The notes under the pieces: model-generated
The model's input: only the letters and a program-made list of their open reading frames with translations
Databases searched by the model: none
Told to the model about the DNA's origin: nothing
Translations under genes and position numbers: made by a program
Shown: piece after piece, positions 3,494 to 33,159 of the stretch
How positions within the stretch are numbered: position 1 is the stretch's first letter
How the letters are laid out: each line of letters begins with the position of its first letter
Assembly: GCA_964576115.1 (NCBI GenBank)
Contig: CAZNUA010000037.1
Location: 1-35,893, forward strand
Length of the DNA stretch: 35,893 nucleotides
Source of the DNA: an uncultured Gemmatimonadota bacterium
Lineage (GTDB): Bacteria; Blakebacterota; Blakebacteria; Blakebacterales; Blakebacteraceae
Reading direction: 5' to 3'

Positions 3494-3914
3494 GATCCCT
3501 TTCCTCGGTCTGCTTCTCTCCCTGCTCTTTATCGCCCTGACCGGTATCTACCCCGGCGGGATCATCGTTCCCTCCTGGCTGGTTCTCTTCATCCACGAAC
3601 CGGCCCGGATCGTCGGCACCCTCGTCGTTGCTCTGCTCGCTTTCGGCCTCTACCGCCTGGCATCACGCCGTCTCATCCTCTTCGGCCGCCGGCGGTTCGT
3701 CTTCCTGCTCCTGCTCGGCGGCGTGCTGGCGGCTCTCACCGCCCGGCTCCTGCCCTCCGTCTTTCCCGCTTCACTCGAGTTCCGGGTCATCGGCTGGGTC
3801 ATCCCGGGGCTGATCGCCAATCATTTCGAACGGCAGGGTCCGCTCGTGACCACGGCCGGGCTCGTCACCGTCACGGTCGCCCTGGCCCTGCTCGGACGGG
3901 TGCTGGGCCTGTGA
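3483..3914 (+). CDS. pgsC: poly-gamma-glutamate biosynthesis protein PgsC/CapC
   Basis: 143-aa hydrophobic protein; TGIYPGGIIVP, ILFGRRRF, IGWVIPGLIAN..ERQG; overlaps the pgsB stop. Confidence 0.93.
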   Translation: MGYEIPFLGLLLSLLFIALTGIYPGGIIVPSWLVLFIHEPARIVGTLVVALLAFGLYRLASRRLILFGRRRFVFLLLLGGVLAALTARLLPSVFPASLEFRVIGWVIPGLIANHFERQGPLVTTAGLVTVTVALALLGRVLGL

Positions 3915-4981
3915 GCCGGCGCGACCGTCTCATCGTCGCGGCCGGAGGAGCAAGCCTGACGGCCTGGCTGGTCGTATCCCTCTGCCTCCCCCCGGTCCGG
4001 CTGCCCTGGATTCCCGAGCGGCTCGAGGCGGCGCAGATCATGGACGAAGCCGTCGGAGCGGTACGCAGCCACTGCGAAACGCGGAACATCGCCATCGACG
4101 AGCGGATCGATCCCAACCGGACCGGTCTGATCGGCCCCGAACTCACCCCCCTGATGACCACTCTTGGCGATGTCGCCGCCAAGCGGACGACCACCACGCC
4201 CGATATGGCCGCCCTCGTCCTGTATCTTCTCCGCACCGCCGGCGTCGCTGCAGGCGATACCGTTGCGGTCGGGGCTTCGGCGTCCTTCCCGGCCCTGCTG
4301 GCGGCGGTCCTGGCAGCCTGTTCGGCGGGCGGCATCCACCCGGTCGTCATCATCTCGCTCGGAGCCTCTTCCTTCGGAGCCACCCGGCCCGAGCTGACCC
4401 TGCTCGACCTCTGCCGTATCTGGCGCGAGGCCGGCATCTTTCCGCATCTCCCGGTCGCGGTCACCCTCGGGGGAACCGGCGATGTCGGCCGGGAGTTCCC
4501 CGACGGGGTGCGGGCCGAGCTCGGTGAGCGTATCGGCCGCAGCTCTCTGGCGACCTTCGCCTGCGATGACCTCGAGACCAACGTCCGGCGACGCCTGCGG
4601 ATATATGCCGACGCCGCACCGCGTCTGGCCGCCTTCGTCAATATCGGCGGCAGCTGGGCCAATCTCGGCACGAGTCATCTCGCCCTGCGTCTCGAACCAG
4701 GACTGAATTCGCCCAACGGCCTCACCCTCCCGCCGCCGCAGCAGCGGGGTGTCCTGTTCGCCATGGCGGCCCGCGGTGTGCCGGTCATCCACCTGCTCTT
4801 CATCCGGGGGTTGGCCCGCCGTCACGGACTGGCGTGGGATCCGGTGCCCCTGCCTGCGCCCGGTTCGACGCCGTTGCTGAGCGGGGTGTCGGAGCAGGGG
4901 GTTCTCTTCTGGTTCGTGACGGTGATCTGGCTGGCGATCATGGGCGGTCTGATCCTCGTCGACCGTCCGAGTCGGAATTGA
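3911..4981 (+). CDS. poly-gamma-glutamate system protein (PgsW-like)
   Basis: IDPNRTGLIGPELTPLMTTLG..AKRTTT.PD, LGASSFGA, FVNIGGS.ANLG, GVPVIHLL; N- and C-terminal TM segments; GTGA overlap with pgsC. Confidence 0.85.
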   Translation: MSRRDRLIVAAGGASLTAWLVVSLCLPPVRLPWIPERLEAAQIMDEAVGAVRSHCETRNIAIDERIDPNRTGLIGPELTPLMTTLGDVAAKRTTTTPDMAALVLYLLRTAGVAAGDTVAVGASASFPALLAAVLAACSAGGIHPVVIISLGASSFGATRPELTLLDLCRIWREAGIFPHLPVAVTLGGTGDVGREFPDGVRAELGERIGRSSLATFACDDLETNVRRRLRIYADAAPRLAAFVNIGGSWANLGTSHLALRLEPGLNSPNGLTLPPPQQRGVLFAMAARGVPVIHLLFIRGLARRHGLAWDPVPLPAPGSTPLLSGVSEQGVLFWFVTVIWLAIMGGLILVDRPSRN

Positions 4982-5052
4982 TACCGGGGGCGTCGTGGGA
5001 TATCATATCTTTCTGTGCCCTCTGCCCGTGGTTGCGAATGAAGGAGCCCATC

Positions 5053-5670
5053 ATGAAGCACCTCTGGAAACCGGTGGCAGCGCTGGCCCTCGTCGTGGCG
5101 TTCGCGGCAGCGGTCCCCGGTCGTCTCACCGCCCAGGAGGAAACGCCCACCGCCGAGCTGCCGGTCCTGATCGCCTCGTGCGGTCAGAGCCCGGGACCCT
5201 CCTACTTCAACGTCTTCCTGCGCCGGCTCGGATACGACTACACCTTCAATACCCTGGCGACGGTCCAGGACCTGCGGGCCGGGTACGGCGAAGAGGGTGT
5301 GCCGTACAAAGCTCTCATCATCGTCACCGGTGCCAGCCTGAAGGGCATGGGCGCAGCCGGCATCTCGATCGATGAGGAACTGGCTCGTACCGAAGCCCTG
5401 ATCGACGCGGCCGAAGAGCTGGGGGTCACGGTCATCGGGGCCCATATCGAGGGCATGGAACGGCGGGCGCAGGGAGCCGCTCCCGGCGACAACTCCGACG
5501 AGCTCTCGATCGATGCCGTCTGTACACGGGCCGATTTTCTCATCGTTCTTCAAGAAGGGGATGAGGACGGCCGCTTCAGCGCCATCTCCGAGTCGAACGA
5601 CATCCCGATCATCCTCTACGAGATGCGGACGGGGCTGAACGATGTTCTGCAGAGCGTGTTCGGCGGGTAA
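5053..5670 (+). CDS. secreted protein, DUF6305-like
   Basis: RBS AAGGAG at 5041-5046, ATG at 5053; signal peptide; CGQSPG, GASLKGMGAAG, HIEGMERR motifs. Confidence 0.75.
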   Translation: MKHLWKPVAALALVVAFAAAVPGRLTAQEETPTAELPVLIASCGQSPGPSYFNVFLRRLGYDYTFNTLATVQDLRAGYGEEGVPYKALIIVTGASLKGMGAAGISIDEELARTEALIDAAEELGVTVIGAHIEGMERRAQGAAPGDNSDELSIDAVCTRADFLIVLQEGDEDGRFSAISESNDIPIILYEMRTGLNDVLQSVFGG

Positions 5671-5682
5671 AGGGCGCTTCGC

Positions 5683-6975
5683 ATGAGCATGTTCGCTTCG
5701 GCCGGGATCGTTCTCGGCGTCATGGTGGCGGTTTATGCCGCGGCCAAGATCTTCCGGCTCTCCACCGAACTGGCCATGCTGGCGGCGGCAGTGGTGGGGG
5801 CTCTGGTCGGCGGTTTCGGCTTTCCCGCCCGCCATTACGCCGAGGGAGCCATCACCTACCTCGACATCAACCTGATCTTCATCACCGCCACCCTCTTCAT
5901 GAACATCCTCAAGGAGTCGGGGGGGGTGGCCTTCGCGGTGCGGGGGATCCTGGCCCGCTTCCATAGCAATCGGGCCCTGCTGCTCATCCTCATGACCATC
6001 CTGCTGCTCCTGCCCGGGGCGCTGACCGGGGCGGGGAGCGTGACGGTGCTGATCACCGGCGGGATGGTGGCCATCGTGCTCTCCTACATGGGCATCACCC
6101 GGCGTCGTACGGCCGCCATCATATTCCTGATCGCGGGCATGAGCGCGGCTGCTCCACCGGTGAGCCTGTGGGCCATGATGACCGCTGCCGGGGTCAACAT
6201 GCCGTATGTCGGCTTCTTCATGCCCCTGCTCATACCCTGCGTGGTGGCCTCGCTGCTGACCGCCTTCATTCTGGGCTGGAAGGGGGGCGAAACCGATTAC
6301 GAGCGGGCCCTGGCCGAACTGCCCGAGCCCCCGGCGGGGATGAACTGGTTCAAGGTTCTGCTGCCCTTCGTGATCTTTCTGCTCCTGGTGCTGGTGGGAC
6401 GCTGGTTCCCGCACTCCACGCCGATTCTCGGTCTGCCGCTGATGTTCGTCTGCGCCGCCGTCATCTCGTTCCTGCTCTCCCCGGTCAGGCTCGACGTGGT
6501 GAAGATCAGCGAGCGCACCGTCGAGCAGCTCCTGCCCCTGATCGGCACACTGACCTGCGTGGGGATCCTGGTCCAGGTCATGACCCTGACCGGGGTGCGG
6601 GGCCTGCTGGCGGTTACGGCCGTGACCCTGCCGGTGGCGCTCGTCTTCGCCAGCCTCTTCTGGCTGATGCCGGTCTCCGAAGCGGTGCTCATGTACGGCG
6701 CCGCCCCGGTGATCGGGGTGCCGCTGATCCTGCTTTTCAACACCATGGGGCTGAACCCGATCGTGGCCCTGGCGGGACTGAGCGTGATCTGGCCGCTCGG
6801 CGACGCTCTGCCGCCCACCGCCATCATCGGCCGGCTGACGGTCGAGGTGGTGGAGTATCGCGAATCGTACACGAGCTTTCTGAAGGCCTGCACGGTGCCG
6901 GCGGTGATCATCATGATTCTCGGTACCCTGATGGTCGTCTTCAGTAAGCACCTGGCCTTCCTGACGGGATTGTAG
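5683..6975 (+). CDS. DctM-like/ion-transporter-superfamily permease
   Basis: 430 aa with about 11-12 hydrophobic segments; LPGALTGAGS, AAAPPVSLWAM, GDALPPTAIIG hairpin-like motifs. Confidence 0.8.
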   Translation: MSMFASAGIVLGVMVAVYAAAKIFRLSTELAMLAAAVVGALVGGFGFPARHYAEGAITYLDINLIFITATLFMNILKESGGVAFAVRGILARFHSNRALLLILMTILLLLPGALTGAGSVTVLITGGMVAIVLSYMGITRRRTAAIIFLIAGMSAAAPPVSLWAMMTAAGVNMPYVGFFMPLLIPCVVASLLTAFILGWKGGETDYERALAELPEPPAGMNWFKVLLPFVIFLLLVLVGRWFPHSTPILGLPLMFVCAAVISFLLSPVRLDVVKISERTVEQLLPLIGTLTCVGILVQVMTLTGVRGLLAVTAVTLPVALVFASLFWLMPVSEAVLMYGAAPVIGVPLILLFNTMGLNPIVALAGLSVIWPLGDALPPTAIIGRLTVEVVEYRESYTSFLKACTVPAVIIMILGTLMVVFSKHLAFLTGL

Positions 6976-6984
6976 GAGGCTGTC

Positions 6985-7149
6985 ATGGTCTTTCTGGGTA
7001 CAGTCATCACCATCATCTACTACCTGCTCGTGGCTTATCTGGTCGTCATCATGATCCGCAACCTGATCCGCACGAAGAGCTGGGAGAAGGAGATCCTCTA
7101 CGTCGTGGTACTGATCCCCTTCCTGCTGCGGCTCCTGCGGTTGAAGTAG
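6985..7149 (+). CDS. 54-aa two-helix membrane protein (absent from the ORF track)
   Basis: RBS AGGAGG overlapping the upstream TAG; MVFLGTVITIIYYLLVAYLVVIMIRNLIRTKSWEKEILYVVVLIPFLLRLLRLK*; fills the gap between operon genes. Confidence 0.8.
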   Translation: MVFLGTVITIIYYLLVAYLVVIMIRNLIRTKSWEKEILYVVVLIPFLLRLLRLK

Positions 7150-7157
7150 GGGGGGCG

Positions 7158-8366
7158 ATGGAGGCGGAAACGGGAACGGAAACGAGGCAGGCTCAAGGTA
7201 CAGGCGGTACCGGAACCGTGCGTAAATACATCTTCTGTGCCTTCGGTCTGGTGGTTCTGGTCGCTTCGGGGATCAGTTTCTACCAGAGCCGCCACCGCGC
7301 TGAACCGGTCGTGATCGGTGAGGGCGTGACGCAGGTCCGCAAACTGAGCGAGTACTTCTCTCCCCTGGCGGGAAGCGTCAACGACTGCAACCTGTACTTC
7401 CTTGAGGGCGAACGACCGGGAGCGACGATCTTCGTTCTGGGCGGTTCGCACCCCGAGGAGCCTGCCGGGCGGCTGGCGCCCTGGCTCTTTGCCGAGAACG
7501 GGGTCATGGAGGCGGGGCGGCTCATCGTCGCCATGAGCGGGAACCGCAGCGCCACCACCGTCACCCGCATCAGCGGCGGCTACCCGCCCGATTTCACCAT
7601 CCCGACCGATTGGGGCGGACAGACCTTCCGCATGGGTGACCGCTGGTCGAACCCGCTCGACCAGTGGCCCGATCCCGAGGTCTACATCCACCACCCCAGC
7701 CGCCAGAATCTGGCCTATGTGGACATCCGTAATCTCAACCGCTGCTGGCCGGGACGGCCCGACGGCACCCTGACAGAACGCACCTGCTACGCTTTCATGG
7801 AGCTGATCCGCACCGAGGAGGTCGACATCTTCATCGACCTGCACGAGGCCGAACTGCAGTACCCGGTGATCAGCACCATCGTGGCCCACGAGGACGGGGT
7901 CGATCTGGCCACCTTCGTTTCGATGATGCTGACCGACATGGAAGGCTTCAAGATGGGGCTGGAGTATTCGCCGAAAAGCCTGCACGGGCTCAGTCACCGC
8001 GAGGTGGGGGATTACTCAGATGCCATCAGCCTGCTCTTCGAAGCCCCCGAACCTTTCCTCGACGCCACCCGGGGGCGCACCACCCGCGAACAGCTTCTGA
8101 CCGGCAAGGACGAGTTCGTCGTCAAGGCCGGCGAGCACGGTCTGCTCTTCGAAAAGATCGACGAAAACGGCTGGCCGATCGACGTGCGGGTCGGCCGGCA
8201 CACCTCGGCCATACTGCAGACCATGGAGATCTGGTCGATGGATCACCCCGACCGCCCGCTCATCTGCAGCGGCGTACCCCGCTACGCCGAGGTGATCGCC
8301 AACGGCGTCGGGCATTACCTGCACGATCCGGCCCGGGCCGCGCCCGGCCGTGTCTATTACGAGTAA
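7158..8366 (+). CDS. succinylglutamate desuccinylase/aspartoacylase (M14-like) zinc hydrolase, membrane-anchored or exported
   Basis: GGSHPEE (HxxE), NLNR, IDLHE motifs; N-terminal hydrophobic segment. Alternative start GTG at 7218. Confidence 0.8.
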   Translation: MEAETGTETRQAQGTGGTGTVRKYIFCAFGLVVLVASGISFYQSRHRAEPVVIGEGVTQVRKLSEYFSPLAGSVNDCNLYFLEGERPGATIFVLGGSHPEEPAGRLAPWLFAENGVMEAGRLIVAMSGNRSATTVTRISGGYPPDFTIPTDWGGQTFRMGDRWSNPLDQWPDPEVYIHHPSRQNLAYVDIRNLNRCWPGRPDGTLTERTCYAFMELIRTEEVDIFIDLHEAELQYPVISTIVAHEDGVDLATFVSMMLTDMEGFKMGLEYSPKSLHGLSHREVGDYSDAISLLFEAPEPFLDATRGRTTREQLLTGKDEFVVKAGEHGLLFEKIDENGWPIDVRVGRHTSAILQTMEIWSMDHPDRPLICSGVPRYAEVIANGVGHYLHDPARAAPGRVYYE

Positions 8367-16749: not shown

Positions 16750-18219
16750 TCAATCTTCAAAAGCCATCTTCTTGAAGATCTTCTTGCACTCGTTCAGCTT
16801 GCGGATGCTGTAGCCGTAAATGGCGACCTTCTCGGCTTCCTTGTTTCCGCCGCCGTGTTTGGAGCCGAACTGCAGCAGGCCGCTCTCGTTCGAGGCCACG
16901 AAGGTCCGGATCAGCTCGTTGACCCGGTAGTGGTCTTCGGCGCTCACGCCTTTCTTCCGTGCGAAGAGATCGCGCACGTGCTCGCCGTACTCGGGATCGC
17001 TCAGCAGTTCGGGGTAGGGCATGTTGGTGGGCAGCGCCCCGGCGAGATCCTGCAGGGTGGCGATGGCGGTGTGGAAATTCTGGCTCGAGAGATACTTGCC
17101 CATGTTCGAATAAACCGGATCGGGGAAGAGCACTCCGCTCTCGGTCTCTTTCGCCTCCTGGATGGCGGCGATCTGCATCGCCTGGACCATGATCGAGGTC
17201 TTGTAGATATCCAGGATCTTGTCGGAATTGTTCGACAGGAAATACTCGCCCTTGGTGCCGTTGTAGTCGGTGATCAGCATCGCCGCGCCGGTCATCAGGT
17301 CGTAGAGCGCGGGCTTGCAGGCGGTGTAGGAGAAGCGGTGCAGGGTGGCGAAGAGATCGGCGTAGACGGCGGCGAAATTGAACTCGCCTTTCAGGAAGAT
17401 CCGCTCGTTGGGGATGAAGACGTTGTTGAAGATGACCATCCCCTCTTTGTTCAGGTACTTGCGCCCGTGGGTGGCGCAGAACTCCCCGTGCAGAGTGACA
17501 ACATCTGGTCCCAGGACGTAACGTTCGACCCCCTCGGCATCGGCGGGAATGGCGAAGGCCACGGCGCAGTCGCTGTCGCTCTTGCCGTACTGCAGACCCG
17601 GCAGAGCGATCAGTTCCTCGGTATAGAGGCTCATCGTGATGGGGGTCTTGATGCCGCTGACGACGATCCCGTCGGGGCGCTCCTCGACGATGCGCACGTA
17701 GCTGTTGGGGGCTGGCTGCTTCGAGGGGGGCTTGCTGCGGTCGCCCTTGCCGTCTGTCACCGCGCCGGCCGGAGCGATGTCGTTCTCCTGGATGTAGGCC
17801 AGGTACCTCAGGAACCGTTGGTGGTACTCGGTTTCGAAGTTGTTGGCCTTGTCCGCCCGGTAGGTGCCCACGTGCAGAGCCCAGAGAGCGTCGCCCCCCA
17901 CGCAGCGCTGTACGCAGCCGACCTGCTTGGTCAGGCAGTTGATCATGGTCAGCCGGGTGGTCATTTCCTGGCGGGTGCGGGGGACGTGGTTGTAGCGGTT
18001 CACCACGCAGCCGATCTCGGGCGATTCGATCGCCATGTGCCCCTTGCACTGCGGATCCCGGGCCTGGTCGTAGGTCACCCCGACGACATTCACGCCCTTC
18101 TGGATATCCTCGTCCTCGTACGGCTCTTCCAGCAACCGGTCCCGAATGATGTTCGGGCGCATGGCCTTCAGCGCAGCGAGGTACTCCTGCGATGTCTTGA
18201 GGATTTCCTTCTTCTCCAT
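16750..18219 (-). CDS. 4-hydroxybutyryl-CoA dehydratase-like (AbfD/HpaB family) FAD/[4Fe-4S] protein, divergent
   Basis: CVQRCVGGDA and HRFSYTACK (three Cys plus His cluster ligands), AVTDGKGDRS, VVSGIK..IT, VIFNNVFIPNERIFLKGE; RBS AAGGAG. Confidence 0.85.
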   Translation of the reverse strand: MEKKEILKTSQEYLAALKAMRPNIIRDRLLEEPYEDEDIQKGVNVVGVTYDQARDPQCKGHMAIESPEIGCVVNRYNHVPRTRQEMTTRLTMINCLTKQVGCVQRCVGGDALWALHVGTYRADKANNFETEYHQRFLRYLAYIQENDIAPAGAVTDGKGDRSKPPSKQPAPNSYVRIVEERPDGIVVSGIKTPITMSLYTEELIALPGLQYGKSDSDCAVAFAIPADAEGVERYVLGPDVVTLHGEFCATHGRKYLNKEGMVIFNNVFIPNERIFLKGEFNFAAVYADLFATLHRFSYTACKPALYDLMTGAAMLITDYNGTKGEYFLSNNSDKILDIYKTSIMVQAMQIAAIQEAKETESGVLFPDPVYSNMGKYLSSQNFHTAIATLQDLAGALPTNMPYPELLSDPEYGEHVRDLFARKKGVSAEDHYRVNELIRTFVASNESGLLQFGSKHGGGNKEAEKVAIYGYSIRKLNECKKIFKKMAFED

Positions 18220-18306
18220 CACATCCGCTCCTTGCCCAGGTTGAACAGGCATTCTAGTGAAATCATGGGGGGAGCGAAAGACGCGATATATTGTGGACTG
18301 CGGCGG

Positions 18307-24309: not shown

Positions 24310-25116
24310 ATGCTGTTTCGCCGACTTCGCGCTCTGACCGCTCTCGTCGTGGCCTGCGCCATCCTGATCGGGCTCGGTAACTGTTCGAAAAAGCCGACCG
24401 GTCCCAATCCCGGCGATATCACGATTCTTTTCATCGGCAACAGCCTGACCTTCTGTAACACCATGCCGGCGTGGTTCGAGCACATGTGCAGCCAGATGGA
24501 TCGCCAGGTTTATGTCTACGACGGCTCTATCGGTGAGACCTATATGGTTCATCATATCGCCAACACCCGGACGATCTCTCTTCTCCAGGACCTCGATTTC
24601 GAGTGGGACGCCGTCATCCTGCAGGACTCGAGTGGCCTCGAGATCTCCCCGTCGAGCCGCGAGCAGCTCCGTGAGATATTTCTGATCATGAAGCTCTATA
24701 TCCGATCCGCCAACCCGCGGGCCGGTATCTTCACGTTTCTGGACTGGCCCGATGTCGGCAGTGAGGACGAAGCCTTCACCGCCGACCGCCTCATCGATGG
24801 CACGATCGCCCTGGCCGACAGCCTTAACCTGATGATTGCTCCGGTCGGGGCGGCCTGGAAGCGGGTGCGGGCCGAGCGCCCGGGCATGAAACTGATCGCC
24901 GACGACAATGTTCATCCCTCGAAGGCGGGATCCTACCTGCAGGCCTGCGTGTACCTGGCGGCCGTTTTCCAGGAAGATCCCCGCCTGATCACCTGGCGGC
25001 CCGACGGGGTGAGCAAACTCACGGCGGAGTACCTGCGCGAGGTGGCCGCCGAGACGGTCTTCAACGATCTTGAGCGCTGGAATATTCCCGACTGGAGCCA
25101 GCCGCCGCCCTTCTGA
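24310..25116 (+). CDS. SGNH/GDSL hydrolase-family lipoprotein
   Basis: Lipobox-like LIGLGN|C; ILFIGNSLTF, WDAVILQD, DNVHPS..GSYL; RBS GGGAG. Confidence 0.82.
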   Translation: MLFRRLRALTALVVACAILIGLGNCSKKPTGPNPGDITILFIGNSLTFCNTMPAWFEHMCSQMDRQVYVYDGSIGETYMVHHIANTRTISLLQDLDFEWDAVILQDSSGLEISPSSREQLREIFLIMKLYIRSANPRAGIFTFLDWPDVGSEDEAFTADRLIDGTIALADSLNLMIAPVGAAWKRVRAERPGMKLIADDNVHPSKAGSYLQACVYLAAVFQEDPRLITWRPDGVSKLTAEYLREVAAETVFNDLERWNIPDWSQPPPF

Positions 25117-25146
25117 GGATTTCAGCGATTTCTCCCGGAATTCCTC

Positions 25147-26322
25147 TCAGATCTCCTCGAGCCTGTCGGGGATGGCGGTGAGCCGCTCGCGTGCTTTCTC
25201 AGCGATCGCCGGGACGACCCGGATTCCCCAGACGACGAGGAAGACGGCTCCGGCCGCCAGCGTCACCACGAAGATCGCGAACATGCCCCACTGCAGGTTG
25301 ACCGGTATCGCGGCCAGGTCGAAGGTGCCCTCCAGGGCCCAGATGCGGGTCAGGTCGCGGAAGATGACCTGGCTCGCGATCGCAAGGGTGATGCCGAGCG
25401 AGGCTGAGATCAGGGCCCCCGGTCCGGCCGCTCCCCGGGCCCGATAGGCGAAGAGGACGAGGCCGATCAGGCCGATCAGGCCCACTGCAAAGAGTACCGG
25501 AGTGGCGCCGACCTCCTGCCAGAGGGCCTTGATCTCATTCCCCCGGGTCGCCAGCAGCCCGAGGGCGGCCACCAGCCAGACCGCGGGCGAGAGAAGCACG
25601 GTCCGCAGGCCGGTACGCTCCGAGATGTCGGCCGCCTCGGCCAGTCCCCACCGGCGCATGACATGCCCCCGCCACATCAGCGCCAGACCGGTGACCGCGA
25701 AACTGCCCGAGAGAAAGAGCAGGAAGCGCGGCACGATGGTGGGCTCACCGTGCAGCAGCACTCCCCCGCCCGGGTGGTCGGCGTACAGACCGGCGAACTT
25801 CTCCGGACTCATCGAAAGAGTGAGGTTGTTGACGTAGATGAAACCCACGTACAGCAGGAGCACGGCCCCGGTCACGACCAGCGCGGTCTGGCCCCGGGGG
25901 CGCGCGTCGCGCATGAACTTGTGGTAATAGAAGATGGCGTAGGCGGCCAGCATGACCGGGATCACCTGGATCCAGAAGGTACCCACGATTACCGAAGAGG
26001 CGTAGAAGAGCTGGCCGTACAGGACCTGCACGAAAAGCAGCGGCGGGATACCCAGGGTGATGATGTACGACACCCCGAGCGGAAAGCTGCTCCCCAGGAA
26101 GCGGGTGATGCCCTCGTGATCGGGTATTTTGCGCCAGCGCGCCCAGAGAAAGAGGATCAGCCCTCCGACCGTGAAGTTCATGGCCAGGAAATGCAGGGTC
26201 AGGGTCAGCCAGGCCAGGGCCTGCAGGATCCAGGGGGGCAGGGGGAAACCGAGCGGATCGGGGCCCGGTATCTGAGGCTGGGCCAGCGCACAGGTCAGCA
26301 GGGCGGTTGTCACGGTCGTCAT
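25147..26322 (-). CDS. multi-TM protein, second CydA-like subunit of a bd-like oxidase
   Basis: LTLTLHFLAMNFTVGG (helix-I His), ITLGIPPLLFVQVLYG; about 9 TM; ATGA overlap with the upstream CydA-like gene. Confidence 0.7.
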   Translation of the reverse strand: MTTVTTALLTCALAQPQIPGPDPLGFPLPPWILQALAWLTLTLHFLAMNFTVGGLILFLWARWRKIPDHEGITRFLGSSFPLGVSYIITLGIPPLLFVQVLYGQLFYASSVIVGTFWIQVIPVMLAAYAIFYYHKFMRDARPRGQTALVVTGAVLLLYVGFIYVNNLTLSMSPEKFAGLYADHPGGGVLLHGEPTIVPRFLLFLSGSFAVTGLALMWRGHVMRRWGLAEAADISERTGLRTVLLSPAVWLVAALGLLATRGNEIKALWQEVGATPVLFAVGLIGLIGLVLFAYRARGAAGPGALISASLGITLAIASQVIFRDLTRIWALEGTFDLAAIPVNLQWGMFAIFVVTLAAGAVFLVVWGIRVVPAIAEKARERLTAIPDRLEEI

Positions 26323-27755
26323 CGTCCACCCTCCCTTCCGCTGGCCGGCAGGTCTGCGCCGGGCCGGACCGCTCCGTTACCGTTGACTGTCCAGAGCGCG
26401 TCGGCCAGCGCTGCCGACCGCTCTGCGGCTACCAGTTCGGCGGCCGACACCGTCTGGCCTCCATGACTCGACACGATCCAGGCGGCCAGGGCAGCCCGGT
26501 CTTCGAGCGTGCCCTGGAAGGGCGGCATCACGCCGGTCTCGTGCATGGTTTCGAACCACCGCAGGCCGAACTCTCCGCTCCAGTTCTCGGTCCGGGCGGC
26601 CAGCGACCGGTACCCCTGCCAGGTATGGCAGCTCGAGCACTGCAGACGCCAGAGCCACTCTCCGTGTTCAGCGCTCAGGGGCTCGACAGGCGGGGCCCAG
26701 CGGGCCTGTTCCAGGTAGGGCCGGCCCATGTAATCGGGATCCTCCGCTTTCTCCTGCCAGAGGCTGTTGGAGTATAGAGTGCCGTACACGACATAGGGTT
26801 TACGGGCCATCTCCCGGAAGAACTCTCCGCCCATGAAACCGAACTGGGCGATCACGAACAGGGCGATCGCCCCGGCAGTGGTGGCGACCCGGGGCCGCCA
26901 GGCCACGAACGCCGTGCCGGCTACGATCAGGAAACCGGCTGAAATCGCCAGCCAGAAATAGCGGGTGAGGGCTTCGAGGCGTCCCCCCATGACACCGGTG
27001 ACGCCCTCCCGGAAAAGCGTGACCGTGGCCTCGGGCAGGGTCGAGAAGTACCAGAGCAGCAGGGGAGGAGTCAGAATGGCGGCCGGGATGACCCATCTGG
27101 CCGCGAAGCCGATTACCTTTTCCTTGAAAGCTTTGTCCTCGAAGCGGGTGGCGACGATGATCGCGAAGAGCCCGGCCAGCATGAACATGATCAGGGTTCT
27201 GATAAAGAGCGAGGGGAAGAACCCGGGGTTGAAGAAACCGGCGGCGATCGACGTGCCGGCCAGCGACCACTGACCCGGAGTGAGCATGAAGGTCAGGATG
27301 CCGTTGATGATGAACAGCGACAGCCAGGCGGAAACGAAATAGGCCCCGGCCAGGAAAATCTGCCGCCCGCGCCCGTAGCGGCCCCAGCCGTAGAAGTAGA
27401 AGTACAGGATGGTGAGTTCAGCCAGGAACATGACCCATTCGGTGGCCCAGGCGAAGACGAACTGGTGGATCAGCAGGCTCGTGCCTTCAGGGCTGGCCAG
27501 CTGGATGGCGAACCAGATCCCCACCCCCGTCACGGCCCCGAAGACGGTCGTGTAGACCAGGAACCAGGTGGCGTACTTGTGCAGCCACTCCCTGATCGCC
27601 TCGCCGTTCGGCTGCCGGTCCGACCAGATCTCGGCCACGAAGAGCAGAGCTCCGCCGCCGATCGCCAGGTGCGAGATCAGCACATGGATGATGGCGATGA
27701 TCGCGACGACGAGTCCCGCTCCCAGGAAGGGGACGTCCCAGACCGGGTAGTTCAT
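26319..27755 (-). CDS. cytochrome bd subunit I-like protein fused to a c-type cytochrome domain
   Basis: IHVLISHLAIGGG, FGAVTGVGIWF, WATEWVMFLAE, IINGILTFMLTPG, EFFREMARKPY; C-terminal CSSCH...GVMPPF. Confidence 0.85.
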   Translation of the reverse strand: MNYPVWDVPFLGAGLVVAIIAIIHVLISHLAIGGGALLFVAEIWSDRQPNGEAIREWLHKYATWFLVYTTVFGAVTGVGIWFAIQLASPEGTSLLIHQFVFAWATEWVMFLAELTILYFYFYGWGRYGRGRQIFLAGAYFVSAWLSLFIINGILTFMLTPGQWSLAGTSIAAGFFNPGFFPSLFIRTLIMFMLAGLFAIIVATRFEDKAFKEKVIGFAARWVIPAAILTPPLLLWYFSTLPEATVTLFREGVTGVMGGRLEALTRYFWLAISAGFLIVAGTAFVAWRPRVATTAGAIALFVIAQFGFMGGEFFREMARKPYVVYGTLYSNSLWQEKAEDPDYMGRPYLEQARWAPPVEPLSAEHGEWLWRLQCSSCHTWQGYRSLAARTENWSGEFGLRWFETMHETGVMPPFQGTLEDRAALAAWIVSSHGGQTVSAAELVAAERSAALADALWTVNGNGAVRPGADLPASGREGGR

Positions 27756-27792
27756 GCCTGTATCTCCCGTCGGGGGAAACTGGCGAGCGGGT

Positions 27793-28908
27793 TCACGAGA
27801 GCGCTCCCCAGAGGGTGAGGATGATCAGGGCCAGCAGGGCCGTGACGCCGAGCCGGGTGGTGAGCCGGCCGCGTTCGTCGCTCGGGATCGAGCGGTCGAA
27901 GAACGGAACGGCCACCAGACCGAGCGGGATCAGGGTCAGGATCGCCAGCCCGAGCAGTTCGATCCGGCCCGGGAACAGCTTCAGCAGCTGGAACTGCGAG
28001 AGAAAATACCACTCGGGTTTGATTCCGGCCGGTGCGGCGGCGGCCGCATTGGCCTCGGGCGCCAGGGGCCGCGGCCAGATCGCCGACAGCGCCACCAGCA
28101 GCACCCCCGTCGCCATCCAGATCGGGATCTCGCCGAACATGAATTCGGAGAAGAACTTCTCGTAGCGCTTCTTCTCCGGCGGCAGGGCCGCGAAGGAGTC
28201 TGGCTCGCTCATGCCCTGGAGCTGAATGAAGAGCAGATGCAGCCCCAGCACGGCCAGGATCGCGAGCGGCAGAACCATGACGTGCAGGGTATAGAAGCGG
28301 CCCAGGGTATCGAGGGTCACCTCGGGGCCTCCCCGGGCCAGGTCGGCCATGAAGTGTCCGAGCAGGGGCAGTTTATCCAACTCGCTGATCCCCACCCGGG
28401 TGGCGAAGAAGGCCAGGTCGTCCCAGGGAAGCAGGTAGCCCGAGAACCCGAAGACCAGGGTGATGGCGAACAGTCCCGCCCCCGTGAGCCAGGTGAACTC
28501 CCGCGGCCGGCGATAGGCCTTCATGAAGAAGGTGCTGAACAGATGCAGGAAAAGAGAGAGAACCATCAGGTTGGCGCTCCAGTGGTGCACGCTCCTGATC
28601 AGGCTCCCGTAGGGCACTTCCATGACGATCCGCTGCACGCTCATCCACGGCTCGGCCGGGCGGTAGTAGATCATCAGCAGGATGCCGGTGACGACCTGTA
28701 CGGCGAAGAAGAAGAGCGCGATTCCGCCCATGTTGTACCACACCGACTGGCTGTGCCGGGGGACCGTCTTGTCGGCCAGGTGGCGCAGGGCCGGCCAGAC
28801 CGGATAGCGGTGCAGGAACCAACGCGAGACCTTGCCGGGAAGTGTCTCCCCGGCCGGGAGCTGGGGTTCGGCCTCGGGGGGGATCGGGTACTCGGTCATG
28901 GTCTCCAT
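27793..28908 (-). CDS. petB: cytochrome b of a Rieske/cytb complex (unsplit)
   Basis: RSVHHWSANLMVLSLFLH, AYRRPREFTWLTG, GFSGYLLPWD, FYTLHVMVLP...LH, IKPEWYF. Alternative start at 28899. Confidence 0.93.
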   Translation of the reverse strand: METMTEYPIPPEAEPQLPAGETLPGKVSRWFLHRYPVWPALRHLADKTVPRHSQSVWYNMGGIALFFFAVQVVTGILLMIYYRPAEPWMSVQRIVMEVPYGSLIRSVHHWSANLMVLSLFLHLFSTFFMKAYRRPREFTWLTGAGLFAITLVFGFSGYLLPWDDLAFFATRVGISELDKLPLLGHFMADLARGGPEVTLDTLGRFYTLHVMVLPLAILAVLGLHLLFIQLQGMSEPDSFAALPPEKKRYEKFFSEFMFGEIPIWMATGVLLVALSAIWPRPLAPEANAAAAAPAGIKPEWYFLSQFQLLKLFPGRIELLGLAILTLIPLGLVAVPFFDRSIPSDERGRLTTRLGVTALLALIILTLWGALS

Positions 28909-28918
28909 CCCGCGCTCC

Positions 28919-29377
28919 TCAGCTCTCGGGCCGGTACACGTAGAGGAGGCCCTCCTCCTCGACGACGTCCAGTTCCCTCAGCGGTCGCGGCGGCGGCCCC
29001 GAGACGTTCTGTCCCTCCAGGTCGTACACGCCGCCGTGACAGTGGCAGTAGATCCGATCCCCCTCGAAAGCCACATTGCAGCCGGCGTGGGTGCACTTGG
29101 AATCGAAGGCCTTCAGTTCCCCCGCGGCATTGCGGAATACGATCAGGCCCCGGTTGCCGTAGGCCCCGTTCTTCCCCATGCCGGGATTCTTCACCTCGGC
29201 CAGGGTGATACCCTGGACCACGGCCCGGCCCTGTTCGTCGAAGGGATCGGGGGGCGCCTGCGGACTCAGGTAGCCGAAGACGGGCACCAGAGCGGCTCCG
29301 AGCCAGCCGAGACCGATGGCTCCCAGGAAACCGAGGAAGCGGCGTTTGGAAGGACTGATGGTCTGTTCCTCACCCAT
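28919..29377 (-). CDS. Rieske [2Fe-2S] protein
   Basis: Tat-like SKRRFLG plus TM; CTHAGC and CHCHGGVYD; GPPPRPL. Confidence 0.95.
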   Translation of the reverse strand: MGEEQTISPSKRRFLGFLGAIGLGWLGAALVPVFGYLSPQAPPDPFDEQGRAVVQGITLAEVKNPGMGKNGAYGNRGLIVFRNAAGELKAFDSKCTHAGCNVAFEGDRIYCHCHGGVYDLEGQNVSGPPPRPLRELDVVEEEGLLYVYRPES

Positions 29378-29420
29378 GCGCTCTTCTCCTGCCCGGCCGG
29401 TGTGTGCGGATCGGGTTCAT

Positions 29421-29443
29421 TTAATAGGATATGTTCCTATTAA
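29421..29443. promoter_or_regulatory. AT-rich perfect 9-5-9 palindrome, candidate operator of the respiratory operon
   Basis: TTAATAGGA-TATGT-TCCTATTAA, 43 nt upstream of the Rieske start in otherwise GC-rich DNA. Confidence 0.65.
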
Positions 29444-29651
29444 CATCTGCGCTCGCACCGGTTTCAACGATGAAACAGTCCGGTATTCACGGACTGCGAC
29501 GATGTCCATCCCCTCGCTCGAACAGACATGACGGTACATTCTCCCGCCTCTGCGGCGAACCGGCAAGGACCTTCCGGTCGGGATAAAAGTGGCGGTGGGG
29601 AGGAGTGTTTACCTCATTGCATCCGGGCCGGCGAACCGGAGGCGGAAGACC

Positions 29652-30818
29652 ATGGAGAGGACGCAGTTGCTGTCACAGCTTGCCGCACTTTCGGGCGAGT
29701 TCGGCACATCCCGTTACGTCCACGGCGGGGGGGGCAACACCTCGGTCAAAGAAAACGGGATTCTCTGGATCAAACCTTCGGGGCGGACTCTGGCCGGACT
29801 CGAACCGGGCGATTTCATCGGTCTCGAGAGGGCCAGCCTGGCCGACCTCTACGGCCCGGACCTGCCCGCCGAACCTGCGGATCGCGAAGAGGCGGCCCGC
29901 CGGATCCTGGCCGGGGCCGTTCTGCCCGGATCGACCGGGCGGCCTTCGGTCGAAACTCCCCTGCACGATTCGATTCCCGCCCGTTTCGTCGTGCATACTC
30001 ACGCCACCCTGGTGAACGGTCTGACCTGCGCTCGGGGGGGTCGGGAAGCCTGCGCCCGGCTCTTTCCCGACGCCCTTTTCATCGACTACTGCGATCCCGG
30101 TTGCCGGCTGGCCCGCCGGGTCAGGGAGGAACTTGCCCGACTCGGCTCCGGTGGGGCCGCGAACGGGCTGGTCATCTTTCTTCAGAACCACGGCGTTTTT
30201 GTGGCCGCGGATCAGCCGCCGCTGATACGGACCGCCTACGACCGCATCATGAAAACCCTCGCCGACCACTACCGCCGTCACGGTCTCGAAGTCGCGCTCG
30301 CCGATGCCCCCGGGACCGATACCGGTTCGGGTACCGCCGCCGAACCCGTATTCCTCACCGCCGGAGATCCGATACCGGCGTCTCTCTCGGAGCTGCTCCC
30401 CCAATCGACCGCGGCCGCGTTTGCCGGGCAAGCCGAACGCCTGTTCGCTGCCTGGCCGACGGACAATCCGCTCCATCTTGCGATCGGAACCGGTTCCGGG
30501 ACTGTCGGCGGTCCCCTGACCCCCGATCACATCGTCTATGCCGGAACCGAACCGTTTGCGGGCCCGCCGACGACCGAGGCAGTGGCTGCCTGGCGGCGGC
30601 GCTTCGGCTATGATCCGAAGGTGATCATCCTGGCGGGGGTGACCTGCGGAGCGGGTTCGACCCCCGACCGGGCCGCCCTGGCCCTCGAGGTGGCCCGGGA
30701 TGCGGTTGAGATCGTCCGGCTCGCCGATACCTTCGGGGGCGTGCGCTACCTCGATCGCGACGCGACCCGCTTCATCGAGGGCTGGGAGGTCGAGCGCTAC
30801 CGCAACCGGCAGATCTAA
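29652..30818 (+). CDS. class II aldolase/adducin family protein (rhamnulose-1-phosphate aldolase-like, no SDR domain)
   Basis: GGGGNTSVK, WIKPSG, RPSVETPLH, VVHTH, FLQNHGVFV, LTPDHIVY, WEVERYR; adjacent to rhaA. Confidence 0.82.
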   Translation: MERTQLLSQLAALSGEFGTSRYVHGGGGNTSVKENGILWIKPSGRTLAGLEPGDFIGLERASLADLYGPDLPAEPADREEAARRILAGAVLPGSTGRPSVETPLHDSIPARFVVHTHATLVNGLTCARGGREACARLFPDALFIDYCDPGCRLARRVREELARLGSGGAANGLVIFLQNHGVFVAADQPPLIRTAYDRIMKTLADHYRRHGLEVALADAPGTDTGSGTAAEPVFLTAGDPIPASLSELLPQSTAAAFAGQAERLFAAWPTDNPLHLAIGTGSGTVGGPLTPDHIVYAGTEPFAGPPTTEAVAAWRRRFGYDPKVIILAGVTCGAGSTPDRAALALEVARDAVEIVRLADTFGGVRYLDRDATRFIEGWEVERYRNRQI

Positions 30819-30833
30819 CCGGCGGAGGTGACC

Positions 30834-32105
30834 ATGGACAGCAGCACTCTCGTCGAACAGGCATACGAAATCGCCCGCGAGCGGTACGCCGCGATCGGGG
30901 TGGATACCGATGCCGCCCGGGACCGGCTGAAGGAGATCGCCGTCTCGGTGCATTGCTGGCAGGGCGATGACGTGGGCGGTTTCGAGGTGCCCGGTGCCGA
31001 ACTGGACGGGGGGGGCATTCAGGTCACCGGTTCCCACCCGGGGCGGGCGCGCACGATCGATGAATTGCGGGATGATCTCGATGCCGCCCTGGCCCTGATC
31101 CCCGGTACGCACCGCCTCAACCTGCACGCCAGCTACCTCGAGAACGGCGGTGTCTTCGTCGACCGTGATGCCGTCAGTCCCGAACACTTCGCCGGCTGGA
31201 TCGCCTGGGCGGCCGAACGGGGACTGGGACTCGATTTCAACCCGACCTGTTTCTCTCATCCGCGGGCCACCGACGGCTTCACCCTGAGTCACCCCGATCA
31301 GGGGGTGCGTACCTTCTGGATCGAGCACTGCCGCCGCTGCCGCGAGATCGGAGCCGAGATGGGCCGCCGGCTCGGCACGCCCTGTGTGACCAACATCTGG
31401 ATCCCCGACGGCTACAAGGATACGCCGGCCGATCGCAGCGCCCCCCGCCGGCGGCTGGTGGCGGCTCTGGATGACATCTTCAGCGTCGAGTACGAACCCG
31501 ACCACCTCCTCGACAGCCTCGAATCGAAGCTCTTCGGGATCGGTTCGGAGAGCTATGTGACCGGCTCGTGGGAGTTTTACCTCGGCTACGCCATCACGCG
31601 CCGCAAGCTGATCTGTATCGATACCGGCCATTTCCACCCGACCGAGGCGATCCACGACAAGATCTCGGCCGTGCTCCTGTACCTGCCCCGTCTCCTGCTG
31701 CATGTCAGCCGCGGCGTGCGCTGGGATTCCGATCACGTCGTCACTCTCTCCGACGACCTGCTGGCTCTGACCGGCGAGCTGGTGCGGAGCGGGGCGCTCG
31801 AACGAACCCACCTCGGGCTGGATTACTTCGACGCCAGCATCAACCGGGTCGCGGCCTGGGTCATCGGCACCCGCAACCTGCTCAAAGCCCTGCTGGCCGC
31901 CCTGCTTGAACCGGGCGACAAACTGCGCGAGCTCGAGCGGGCCGGCGACCTGACCGGCCGGCTGGCGCTGCTCGAGGAACTCCGGACGCTACCCCTGGGT
32001 GCGGTCTGGGATTCGTACTGTCTCGAAGCCGGCGTGCCGGTTGGCGAAACCTGGCTCGACGAGGTGCGGGCGTACGAGCGGACCGTGCTGGCCGGGCGGG
32101 AGTAA
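30834..32105 (+). CDS. rhaA: L-rhamnose isomerase
   Basis: [101 protein letters not shown]. Confidence 0.97.
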
Positions 32106-32109
32106 AGAC

Positions 32110-33159
32110 GTGGCATCCCCAGCTGCGGAACGGGGATCTGGCAGCGACCGATCTCACTCGGGCCGACTGCGGGTCGGTATCGACTCCTACGGTCTGCTCC
32201 CCCTCGGGCTCGAGCCGCTCGAGTTGCTGGCCTGGGCCCGCGAAAACGGCGCCGGGGGAGTGCAGTTCAGCGGTCTGAGCGAGGCCGGGAACGCCCGGGT
32301 CGACCGGGGTTATCTCGACGCCATGCGCCAGTACTGCACGGAAGCGGATCTGTATCTGGAGTGGGGTGGGGCCCAGCACATCCCCCGTGACATGCAGAGC
32401 TGGCAGGCCCGGGATATTTTGGCCGTGAACCGCCGGGCGGCCGAACAGGCGACGATCCTGGGCACTCGAATCGTCCGTTCCTGCTCGGGCGGGCTGATGC
32501 GCTGGGACGAGGCCAATCCCGACACCGACACCCTGCTGGCCGAAACCGCCCGGACGCTGCGCGATCAGCGTTCCATGCTGCGCGACCACAACGTGATTCT
32601 CAGCCTCGAACTGCACTTCGAGTTCACCACCTTCGAACTGCTGCGGCTCTTCGAGACCTGCGGGGCACAGCCGGGGGATTGGCTGGGCATCTGCCTGGAT
32701 ACCATGAACGTGCTGACCATGCTCGAGGAACCGGTCGCCGCCACCCGCCGGGTGCTGCCCTGGGTCACCTCGACCCACATCAAGGACGGCGGCATCGTGG
32801 TCGACGGTGAAGGGATGGTGACCTTTCCCGCCGCGGTCGGCGGCGGCATCGTGGATCTGCCCGCCATCTGCCGTCTGCTCGCAGGCGCCCACGAGCGAAT
32901 GAACCTGTCGATCGAAGATCACGGCGGATCCTTCTTCCTGCCGATCTCAGATCCCGCCTTCCTGGCCCGCTTCCCCGATCTATCGGACGACGAGTACGCC
33001 GATCTGCGTACGCTCGCCGCCCGGACCGCCGAACGCATCGCCGCCGGGAGCTGCTCGATCACCGGACGCGAGGCCTGGCCCGCCCTCTGCGAGCGCCGCC
33101 TCCAGCAGGACCTCGGTGCCCTGAATGCCATCGTGGCCGCGCTCGGCGACGGGGAGTGA
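32110..33159 (+). CDS. sugar-phosphate isomerase/epimerase (xylose-isomerase-like TIM barrel)
   Basis: Metal-ligand pattern LELHFE, CLDTMN, THIKDG, SIEDHG; GTG start 4 nt after the rhaA stop. Confidence 0.8.
   Translation: MASPAAERGSGSDRSHSGRLRVGIDSYGLLPLGLEPLELLAWARENGAGGVQFSGLSEAGNARVDRGYLDAMRQYCTEADLYLEWGGAQHIPRDMQSWQARDILAVNRRAAEQATILGTRIVRSCSGGLMRWDEANPDTDTLLAETARTLRDQRSMLRDHNVILSLELHFEFTTFELLRLFETCGAQPGDWLGICLDTMNVLTMLEEPVAATRRVLPWVTSTHIKDGGIVVDGEGMVTFPAAVGGGIVDLPAICRLLAGAHERMNLSIEDHGGSFFLPISDPAFLARFPDLSDDEYADLRTLAARTAERIAAGSCSITGREAWPALCERRLQQDLGALNAIVAALGDGE

Follow-up and report, generated by a model that had tools for sequence, protein, structure and literature searches.

A conserved operon pairing a c1-less Rieske/cytochrome b module with a haem c-bearing, OR-C1-type member of the cytochrome bd superfamily

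Textbooks present cytochrome bd oxidases as enzymes that oxidize quinol directly, circumvent complex III and conserve little energy. Here we describe a four-gene operon in which members of this superfamily are encoded together with a Rieske/cytochrome b module. It lies on a 35,893-nucleotide stretch of DNA (contig CAZNUA010000037.1 of assembly GCA_964576115.1, from an uncultured Gemmatimonadota bacterium), which we refer to, at its full length, as the window. The closest described relatives of its bd-type proteins are OR-C1a and OR-C1b, defined from genomics alone in a preprint by Murali, Gennis and Hemp; what we say of that work refers to its main text. OR-C1a is presented there as a CydA clade without the quinol site, typically with eight helices and a C-terminal haem c extension, and OR-C1b as a paralogue adjacent to OR-C1a, the 'b' subunits being without the channel glutamates. 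Both are reported from Bacteria only, and the electron donor that the authors suggest for OR-C enzymes is a cytochrome c. The archaeal CydAA' (qOR4a/qOR4b) of the same superfamily has, according to the same text, been shown to reduce O2, and passages of a paper on Fervidibacter assign the CydA of that organism, which has no CydB, to the OR-C clade.

An earlier reading of this DNA from its letters (the original prediction) had described such cytochrome c-containing enzymes as known mostly from genomes, in agreement with the main text of the preprint. As it had also proposed, the four proteins probably form a chain in which a Q-cycle module passes electrons to a haem c borne by the oxidase itself and thence to a bd-type O2 site. 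The main text of the preprint nowhere contains the word Rieske; its Figure 1 operon drawings and supplement lie outside that text and may show the linkage. In the searchable literature, including passages of PMC5600118 on the evolution of cytochrome bc complexes, we found no description of Rieske/cytochrome b genes linked to OR-C. Relative to the literature searched, four aspects may therefore be new: the c1-less Rieske/cytochrome b pairing, the haem-count rule, the way in which the two trees diverge together, and how this module differs from other Rieske/cytochrome b modules of the same genomes, although the OR-C operon figure may already show the pairing. As for the oxidase, it adds a member to a family already known from genomic work.

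Proteins encoded by the operon

Four minus-strand open reading frames (ORFs) occupy positions 25147-29377, encoding, in order of transcription, a Rieske protein, a cytochrome b, an OR-C1a-type protein and an OR-C1b-type protein:

28919..29377, minus strand: Rieske [2Fe-2S] subunit, 152 amino acids (aa); Pfam PF00355, E 2.3e-12
27793..28908, minus strand: cytochrome b, 371 aa, fused b6-like plus subunit-IV-like form; PF00033, E 9.7e-45, and PF00032, E 1.7e-8
26319..27755, minus strand: OR-C1a-type CydA homologue, 478 aa; Pfam, family alignment, profile, AlphaFold and Foldseek
26766..27755, minus strand: membrane domain of the OR-C1a-type protein, about residues 1-330; profile match to 5doq_A, Escherichia coli residue mapping and Foldseek
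26451..26693, minus strand: cytochrome c domain of the OR-C1a-type protein, about residues 355-435; PF13442, PDB profile matches and invariant residues
25147..26322, minus strand: OR-C1b-type CydA paralogue, 391 aa; hhalign, AlphaFold, Foldseek and invariant columns

Read from the DNA in gene order, the junctions are a 10-nucleotide gap, a 37-nucleotide gap and an ATGA overlap of genes 3 and 4, and GGAG-like motifs precede the starts of the second and third genes. The tight packing described in the original prediction was thus recovered in both coordinates and junctions. So was the lack of a stand-alone cytochrome c, as gene 3 is the only gene of the operon with a CxxCH motif.

In the product of gene 3, eight long helices come first; a class-I cytochrome c domain on the periplasmic side and then a low-complexity tail make up the rest. 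In its AlphaFold model (mean predicted local distance difference test, pLDDT, 83.1) the helices span residues 12-46, 51-87, 89-122, 129-158, 179-202, 208-239, 262-286 and 293-317, and ranks 1-10 of a Foldseek search of the PDB with this model are all CydA chains. The Pfam family Cyt_bd_oxida_I (PF01654) matches residues 16-219 only (E 9.4e-8), and the OR-C1a family profile matches the CydA of Geobacillus thermodenitrificans (5doq_A, E 3.7e-7). The family is large, 1616 of 8000 scored candidates reaching E ≤ 0.001.

In an alignment of 28 relatives, drawn from all gene contexts and 34-66% identical to the window protein, the following residues are invariant: H24, H29, E42, E106, E113, R186, E311, R314, E315, R318, K319, P320, C373, C376, H377, M410, P411 and P412. 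Residues H19, E99 and E107 of E. coli CydA align to H24, E106 and E113, so that the helix-I histidine and the two channel glutamates (in TEWVMFLAE), recognized by eye in the original prediction, are indeed kept. Past helix 5 the alignment is weak; there E. coli H186 falls on I185, adjoining the invariant R186, and M393 has no credible counterpart. The arginine predicted to replace the haem b558 histidine is present in its motif (LFIRTL), but it sits beside the position of H186 and not on it. The Q-loop is absent, as had also been predicted: the membrane part is about 330 residues long and has no long periplasmic loop between helices 6 and 7 of the model. The C-terminal half gives no reliable sequence alignment with E. 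coli or Geobacillus CydA. An ExxRxP motif had been claimed for this half, and the stretch REMARKPY is there, but its equivalence to the CydA motif could not be confirmed by sequence alignment. From the likeness of the motif, its position in the last helix and the CydA fold match of the whole domain, we infer that E315 is the equivalent of E445. We propose that the membrane domain holds the dihaem O2-reducing site together with the two channel glutamates.

The haem c motif of this protein, CSSCH, lies at 26625-26639 (residues 373-377). Cytochrome_CBB3 (PF13442) matches residues 362-427 with 24.0 bits, below its 27-bit cut-off, and the PDB profile matches of the domain are to cytochrome c6, CcoP and the actinobacterial bcc cytochrome c subunit. 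Residue M410, in an MPPF motif, is likely the sixth ligand of the haem. With the CSSCH in the translation and C373, C376, H377 and M410 all invariant, the C-terminal His/Met monohaem domain of the original prediction stands.

Gene 4 has no Pfam or NCBIfam match and no haem c motif, and BLASTP detects no similarity between its product and that of gene 3; the kinship of the two is visible by profiles and folds only. In hhalign the OR-C1b family matches the OR-C1a family with 97.4% probability (E 1.3e-11, 280 columns), Foldseek ranks 1-16 of the AlphaFold model (pLDDT 92.2) are all cytochrome bd subunits, and an alignment of 27 sequences retains an invariant helix-1 histidine, H44, and the arginines R199, R322 and R326. 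For these reasons we regard gene 4 as encoding a CydA paralogue. By our reading of the family alignments, Q99 falls within the stretch that matches the channel-glutamate helix of OR-C1a. The predicted structure shows nine long helices after a short N-terminal helix, against the eight transmembrane helices expected of OR-C1b. An identity as CydB was considered and rejected, there being no PF02322 match and the profile match being to the CydA-like OR-C1a family. The expectation that both CydA-like proteins would hit bd subunit I profiles held for gene 3 (PF01654) but not, as far as Pfam is concerned, for gene 4, whose kinship appears by profile and fold.

Genes 3 and 4 appear to fit an OR-C1a/OR-C1b pair, as they display the features of the preprint that could be checked, the helix count of OR-C1b aside. 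This agrees with the OR-C-type assignment of the original prediction (haem c present, quinol site absent). A canonical quinol-oxidizing CydAB they are not: there is no Q-loop, there are no His/Met ligands for haem b558, and neither the operon nor the 93.66%-complete genome gave a CydB (PF02322) match. One might suppose, instead, that the CydA-like proteins are non-catalytic, a membrane anchor that presents haem c and acts as a novel cytochrome c1 substitute within a bc-type complex serving other final acceptors. The loss of the haem b558 ligands and Q-loop from OR-C1a, and of the channel glutamates from OR-C1b, would be in line with such a role. However, H24, E106, E113, E311, E315 and R318 are invariant in the 28 OR-C1a sequences, and buried charged residues of this kind would not be expected of an anchor; moreover, a two-subunit anchor of about 870 residues would be a very costly way of holding one haem. 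We regard this idea as hardly credible and keep to that of an oxidase.

As for genes 1 and 2, the Rieske protein begins with a twin-arginine/anchor segment (RRFLG) and has both cluster boxes, CTHAGC and CHCHGG, including the disulfide cysteines; C95, T96, H97, C100, C111, C113 and H114 are invariant in 15 aligned sequences. Equally invariant, in 15 aligned cytochrome b sequences, are the haem-ligand histidines H108, H122, H209 and H224 and the quinol-oxidation (Qo) motif PEWY (298-301). The cysteine that would bind haem ci covalently is absent from all 15, the position reading WYNMGG, and a Pfam scan revealed no cytochrome c fused to the cytochrome b. The best NCBIfam match is 'cytochrome b6', under its cut-off, and the histidines of helix D are spaced by 14 residues, a spacing that we take to be b6-like. 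A b6f- or b6c-type complex with haem ci was considered and rejected, given the single 371-aa cytochrome b, the missing CxGG cysteine and the lack of a fused cytochrome c. Nor is this a cytochrome bc1 in the strict sense: as the original prediction had noted, the operon has no cytochrome c1 (PF02167), and none was found in the 93.66%-complete genome.

Conserved linkage and haem count

With the four proteins of the window we searched the best 80 of 184 stretches that encode an OR-C1a relative in species-representative genomes (loci and genomes are designated below by L and G numbers). Cytochrome b lies directly upstream of OR-C1a at 41 of the 80 loci, and wherever the contig reaches far enough the Rieske gene is there too. 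The gene order of the window was found at 24 of these 41 linked loci; OR-C1b follows downstream in 21, the other three being cut by contig ends, and the Rieske gene is missing only at L006, L017 and L018, where again the contig ends. At the remaining 17 linked loci OR-C1b stands ahead of the Rieske gene (16/17; at L062 the contig begins at the Rieske gene). The linked loci belong to at least six phyla, with members of the Myxococcota, Planctomycetota, Verrucomicrobiota, Hydrogenedentota, Acidobacteriota (Bryobacterales) and Sumerlaeota. The four-gene unit put forward in the original prediction is therefore conserved, in two gene orders that match the clades of cytochrome b and OR-C1a described below. 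Additional conserved neighbours were considered and rejected, as the flanks of 17 loci, scanned with Pfam, differ from locus to locus. At one linked locus, from a Planctomycetaceae genome (L075:6001-7056), the OR-C1a ORF has only 351 aa, with neither haem c motif nor haem c domain, and OR-C1b too is matched over a short length; this cassette may be decaying, or the assembly may be at fault.

The 39 unlinked loci comprise 30 with OR-C1a followed by OR-C1b, six from Armatimonadota/Fervidibacterota with OR-C1a alone, and three that end just past OR-C1a. The number of haems follows this division. All 37 complete linked OR-C1a proteins have exactly one CxxCH motif, so the monohaem oxidase of the original prediction is the rule when the module is present; the other four linked proteins are three cut by contig ends and that of L075, which lacks the motif and looks broken. 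By comparison, two CxxCH motifs occur in all 30 unlinked OR-C1a proteins that stand beside OR-C1b and in the three at cut loci (33/39 unlinked).

In a quick maximum-likelihood tree of 76 OR-C1a sequences (L075 left out), the window-order proteins form a clade of 22 rows with a Shimodaira-Hasegawa-like approximate likelihood ratio test (SH-aLRT) value of 100, those of the other linked group make a second clade, with 16 rows (SH-aLRT 99), and the unlinked proteins make up the remaining 38 rows (82). The tree of 47 cytochrome b sequences shows the same two gene-order groups, with 22 and 17 rows (both SH-aLRT 99), and sub-groups as in the OR-C1a tree. Because the two trees match, with phyla mixed within each linked group, we conclude that the Rieske/cytochrome b/OR-C1 module is co-inherited and moves between phyla. 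The OR-C1a tree being unrooted, the linked state may have arisen once or twice.

A proposed route from quinol to the oxidase haem c

The chain that we consider probable would work as follows. Its first part, encoded by genes 1 and 2, is a quinol-oxidizing Rieske/cytochrome b module to which neither a cytochrome c1 nor a cytochrome f nor a fused cytochrome c belongs. Its second part, the OR-C1-type oxidase encoded by genes 3 and 4, would be a heterodimer of two CydA paralogues. OR-C1a has lost the quinol site and the haem b558 ligands, carries one periplasmic haem c instead, and retains the residues of the bd O2-reducing haem site and of the proton channel (H24, E106, E113, E315/R318). Quinol would be oxidized at the Qo site (PEWY) in a Q-cycle; the Rieske cluster would give one electron to the haem c of OR-C1a, the substitute for cytochrome c1; and this haem would feed the bd-type dihaem site, where O2 would be reduced with protons drawn from the cytoplasm through the E106/E113 channel. 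Going by the established energetics of bc complexes and bd oxidases, the yield would be about 2 charges moved per electron, with no copper. For quinol-oxidizing bd oxidases the figure is one charge per electron, and for bc1 plus aa3 it is three. The dihaem OR-C1a proteins of unlinked loci would receive electrons from soluble carriers, much as cbb3 oxidases do via CcoP. That the four proteins associate physically, perhaps only transiently, that the Rieske cluster reduces haem c directly, and that the substrate is O2 is what we infer from the linked parts. A co-fold of Rieske, cytochrome b and OR-C1a (residues 1-440), with a 15-row alignment for each, scored 0.28 (mark 0.32) and counts neither for nor against the chain.

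It could also be that the proteins share an operon but belong to separate complexes, the module reducing some other carrier (such as an unrecognized small cytochrome, a multihaem protein or a cupredoxin), which in turn reduces the haem c of OR-C1a, as in branched chains. The flanks of the cassettes speak to this. A Rieske head needs a haem within reach. At 31 of the 37 linked loci where both OR-C1 genes are present, a search of both strands out to 2.5 kb revealed no CxxCH ORF besides OR-C1a; on the strand of the cassette itself none was seen at 34. The three with such an ORF are L001, L009 and L014. At the sister Polyangiaceae loci L009 (8772-9482) and L014 (9069-10845) a one-CxxCH ORF lies just downstream of the cassette on the same strand, and that of L009, the sole one of the three loci whose extra ORF was checked, matches cytochrome c families. 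These two extra genes favour a separate carrier, and L009 and L014 are the only linked loci where one might be encoded with the cassette.

Other cytochrome b genes of the same genomes offer a control. Among the 25 linked-cassette genomes searched, 15 have the cassette cytochrome b only and 10 have more; ten such second loci, from seven genomes, were compared. At eight of the ten a haem c motif is fused to the cytochrome b or lies beside it. The cytochrome b of L081 (4567-6030), L082 (3654-5132) and L083 (4558-6171) ends in a class-I cytochrome c fusion, and L081 and L082 adjoin caa3-type oxidase genes (COX2 with cytochrome c, COX3, CtaG); these three are ordinary complex III-IV loci of genomes that also bear the OR-C1 cassette. 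At L089 the second cytochrome b has a pentahaem neighbour, and at L084-L087 it stands in nar operons and is followed by a small one-CxxCH ORF (with Pfam support at L085-L087 and by likeness at L084). The other two, L088 and L090, show no haem c among the ORFs examined. Because eight of the ten second loci carry one, we take it as the usual rule in these genomes that a haem c comes with the Rieske/cytochrome b module; the module linked to OR-C1 has none.

The nar loci contain another Rieske/cytochrome b module wired onto a terminal reductase. In the narH/narJ operons at L085:3438-6438, L086:3732-6750 and L087:3654-6723, and also at L084 (genomes G018, G015, G005 and G016), a single protein of 439-441 aa combines NarI (PF02665) with a Rieske domain, and after it come the cytochrome b of 367-370 aa and the one-CxxCH ORF. 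Pfam supports the NarI-Rieske fusion at L086 and L087 and in part at L085; at L084 it is recognized by likeness only.

The source assembly (3.96 Mb in 144 contigs, 93.66% complete, 0.04% contamination) gave no match to a haem-copper oxidase, CydB, cytochrome c1, NrfD or PF00034. Its sole CydA-like gene (OR-C1b apart), its sole cytochrome b and its sole PF13442 domain are those of the operon, and it holds NuoD (complex I) and two cytochrome c assembly genes. Scanning it for CxxCH motifs yielded four frames with at least two, two of which are real multihaem cytochromes. Both are encoded on minus strands of contigs of this same genome (G000). One (contig C1, L094:2387-3877) is a 496-aa pentahaem cytochrome with weak c7, c554 and NapC-like matches; the other (contig C22, L095:2282-3811) has 509 aa, with an N-terminal NapC/NirT tetrahaem domain fused to an FGE-sulfatase (formylglycine-generating-enzyme-like) domain. 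The neighbours of the latter are a xylose-isomerase-like TIM-barrel protein and a GFO/IDH/MocA oxidoreductase with a weak, below-cut-off match to a Rieske-type twin-arginine translocation (TAT) signal (E 9.7e-4).

Several observations weigh against the proposed chain or parts of it. Rieske and cytochrome b are absent at 39 of the 80 OR-C1a loci; the linkage is not universal, and OR-C1 can therefore work with other donors, although at four of the 39 (L028, L030, L045 and L055) the upstream flank is under 1.3 kb and the module is possible there. The six lone unlinked OR-C1a proteins of Armatimonadota/Fervidibacterota are also monohaem, so one haem alone does not imply a Rieske partner. The haem-count pattern follows three clades of a quick-method tree and therefore reflects few independent events. 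The pentahaem cytochrome and the NapC/NirT fusion are two multihaem c-type cytochromes elsewhere in the genome. The C-terminal haem ligand E315 cannot be aligned by sequence with canonical CydA, and the case for O2 reduction at the OR-C1a site would come only from the residues that it has in common with canonical bd oxidases. Finally, a same-genus genome has a haem-copper oxidase in a region without counterpart in the source assembly, and 17 of the 25 linked-cassette genomes searched also have a haem-copper oxidase; for both reasons the status of 'sole oxidase' here may be an assembly gap. Among the ten species genomes of the window's phylum in the collection, four, including the source genome, carry OR-C1a and two, one of them the same-genus genome, have a haem-copper oxidase match. 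The same-genus gene (L092, G028 contig C28, ORF 5817-7268) encodes 483 aa scoring 259 bits to COX1 and lies beside a 641-aa ORF with five CxxCH motifs (3895-5820); the source genome has nothing convincingly equivalent to these two genes or to the genes around them, and one neighbouring ORF gives a weak 31% match.

For a separate carrier, then, speak the loci without the module, the extra ORFs of the two Polyangiaceae loci and the multihaem cytochromes of the genome. On the other side, neither a cytochrome c1 or PF00034 protein nor a second PF13442 domain was found in that genome, all linked enzymes have shed the second haem c, and eight of ten other modules in the same genomes have kept a haem c of their own. 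We consider a separate carrier unlikely and favour direct delivery to the haem c of OR-C1a.

The chain might also be coupled as proposed but end on something other than O2 (nitric oxide, peroxide or another small oxidant), serving detoxification or anaerobic respiration. We found no characterization, and no measured catalytic chemistry, of OR-C in the literature searched, and the metagenome runs that contain the locus are labelled sediment and seawater. The Desulfovibrionia are anaerobes. According to the main text of the preprint, their OR-C1a carries up to eight haem c motifs. However, the residues that OR-C1a has conserved belong, in canonical bd oxidases, to the O2-reducing site and the proton channel, and the archaeal CydAA' of the same superfamily reduces O2 (as given in that main text). 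In addition, a haem-copper oxidase was not found in 7 of 14 window-order genomes and in 1 of 11 with the other order (figures for genomes whose completeness is not given); if OR-C1 did not reduce O2, the seven and the source genome would be left with no O2 reductase beside complex I. On this evidence a substrate other than O2 seems improbable to us, and we retain O2.

A stronger version of the chain can be imagined, an obligate copper-free complex III-IV machine in which the mobile Rieske head docks on the oxidase haem c. The Q-cycle and bd charge separation would then act in series (about 2 charges per electron, twice any known bd oxidase), and the cassette would be a self-sufficient kit for aerobic respiration passed between phyla, the only route from quinol to O2 where haem-copper oxidases are absent. 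This may be so, but we lean somewhat towards doubting it.

The surroundings of the operon add little to it. On the upstream side the genes for a class II aldolase and L-rhamnose isomerase run divergently from it; on the downstream side a gene for a DUF4886 protein converges on it, with one for a sortilin/BNR protein behind. None is akin to the operon genes, and given their orientation the unit consists of exactly four genes. No RNA run was listed among those that contain the locus. The promoter presumably lies in the upstream intergenic region, although a scan of 24900-29700 for the sigma-70 consensus revealed no promoter-like site:

29378..29588, no strand assigned: intergenic region between the Rieske gene and the divergent class II aldolase gene; assigned by position only

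The divergent genes are part of a sugar-catabolism cluster (window 29589-33159, plus strand), which also encodes a xylose-isomerase-like TIM-barrel protein. The match to L-rhamnose isomerase has E 3e-196, and the same-genus genome has kept the class II aldolase neighbour (L093, 58% identity). Elsewhere in the window (16750-18252, minus strand) there is a 500-aa HpaB-family protein (PF11794 and PF03241). The HpaB family spans O2-dependent hydroxylases and 4-hydroxybutyryl-CoA dehydratases, and which activity this protein has bears on the use of O2 by the organism.

Comparison with known systems

The cassette suggests that a widespread branch of the bd superfamily does the opposite of what is usually assumed, having given up quinol and been placed behind a Q-cycle module via its own haem c. 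If this is true, there would be a copper-independent respiratory chain of intermediate efficiency, and a third way of coupling complexes III and IV would join those by soluble cytochrome c and by the actinobacterial bcc-aa3 supercomplex. Thousands of genes annotated as 'cytochrome c' or 'ubiquinol oxidase subunit I' would acquire a function, and the inference of O2 respiration from metagenomes would be altered for Myxococcota, Planctomycetota, Verrucomicrobiota, Hydrogenedentota and those small candidate phyla where haem-copper oxidases were not found.

With OR-C1 as described in the main text of the preprint, the enzyme studied here has in common the eight-helix CydA homologue, the lack of a quinol site, the C-terminal haem c and the adjacent paralogue without channel glutamates. 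It differs in being encoded with a c1-less Rieske/cytochrome b and in being strictly monohaem when so linked, whereas that text names only 'a cytochrome c' as donor. Archaeal CydAA' (qOR4a/qOR4b), in the same source, likewise has two CydA paralogues in place of CydA and CydB, but unlike OR-C1 here it keeps the quinol site and has neither haem c nor linkage to Rieske/cytochrome b.

The CydAB(X) oxidases of E. coli and G. thermodenitrificans (PDB 6rx4, 5doq) are similar in the fold of both subunits, the helix-1 histidine and the two channel glutamates, which in OR-C1a have the shorter, Geobacillus-type spacing. What is different here is the lack of a Q-loop, of the haem b558 ligands H186/M393 and of a CydB match, with electrons presumably entering via a covalent haem c. 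Canonical bd oxidases bypass complex III; judging from the gene linkage, OR-C1 here would sit behind one.

Among systems that connect quinol oxidation to an O2 reductase without soluble cytochrome c, the actinobacterial bcc-aa3 supercomplex (PMC4505504; PDB 7q21, 6hwh) comes closest, and the haem c domain of OR-C1a gives weak profile matches to the bcc cytochrome c subunit (E 4e-5 to 2e-4). In bcc-aa3, however, the dihaem QcrC belongs to complex III and the oxidase is of the haem-copper kind, while here, going by the genes, the haem c is fused to a copper-free bd-family oxidase. The caa3 and cbb3 haem-copper oxidases (CcoP; PDB 6xkx, 9g83) also use a class-I haem c of their own as the point of electron entry, and the unlinked OR-C1a proteins are dihaem, like CcoP; yet the haem-copper enzymes belong to an unrelated superfamily, with a haem-copper site in place of the putative dihaem bd-type site. 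Finally, green sulfur bacteria (PMC10172866) pair a Rieske/cytochrome b lacking cytochrome c1 with the membrane-bound cytochrome c-556, and there, as would be the case here, electrons are handed directly to a monohaem c that is part of the acceptor or serves it, with no soluble carrier. In that system the cytochrome is a separate protein and the acceptor is the photosynthetic reaction centre; in the operon described here the haem c domain is fused to what is probably a bd-type oxidase.

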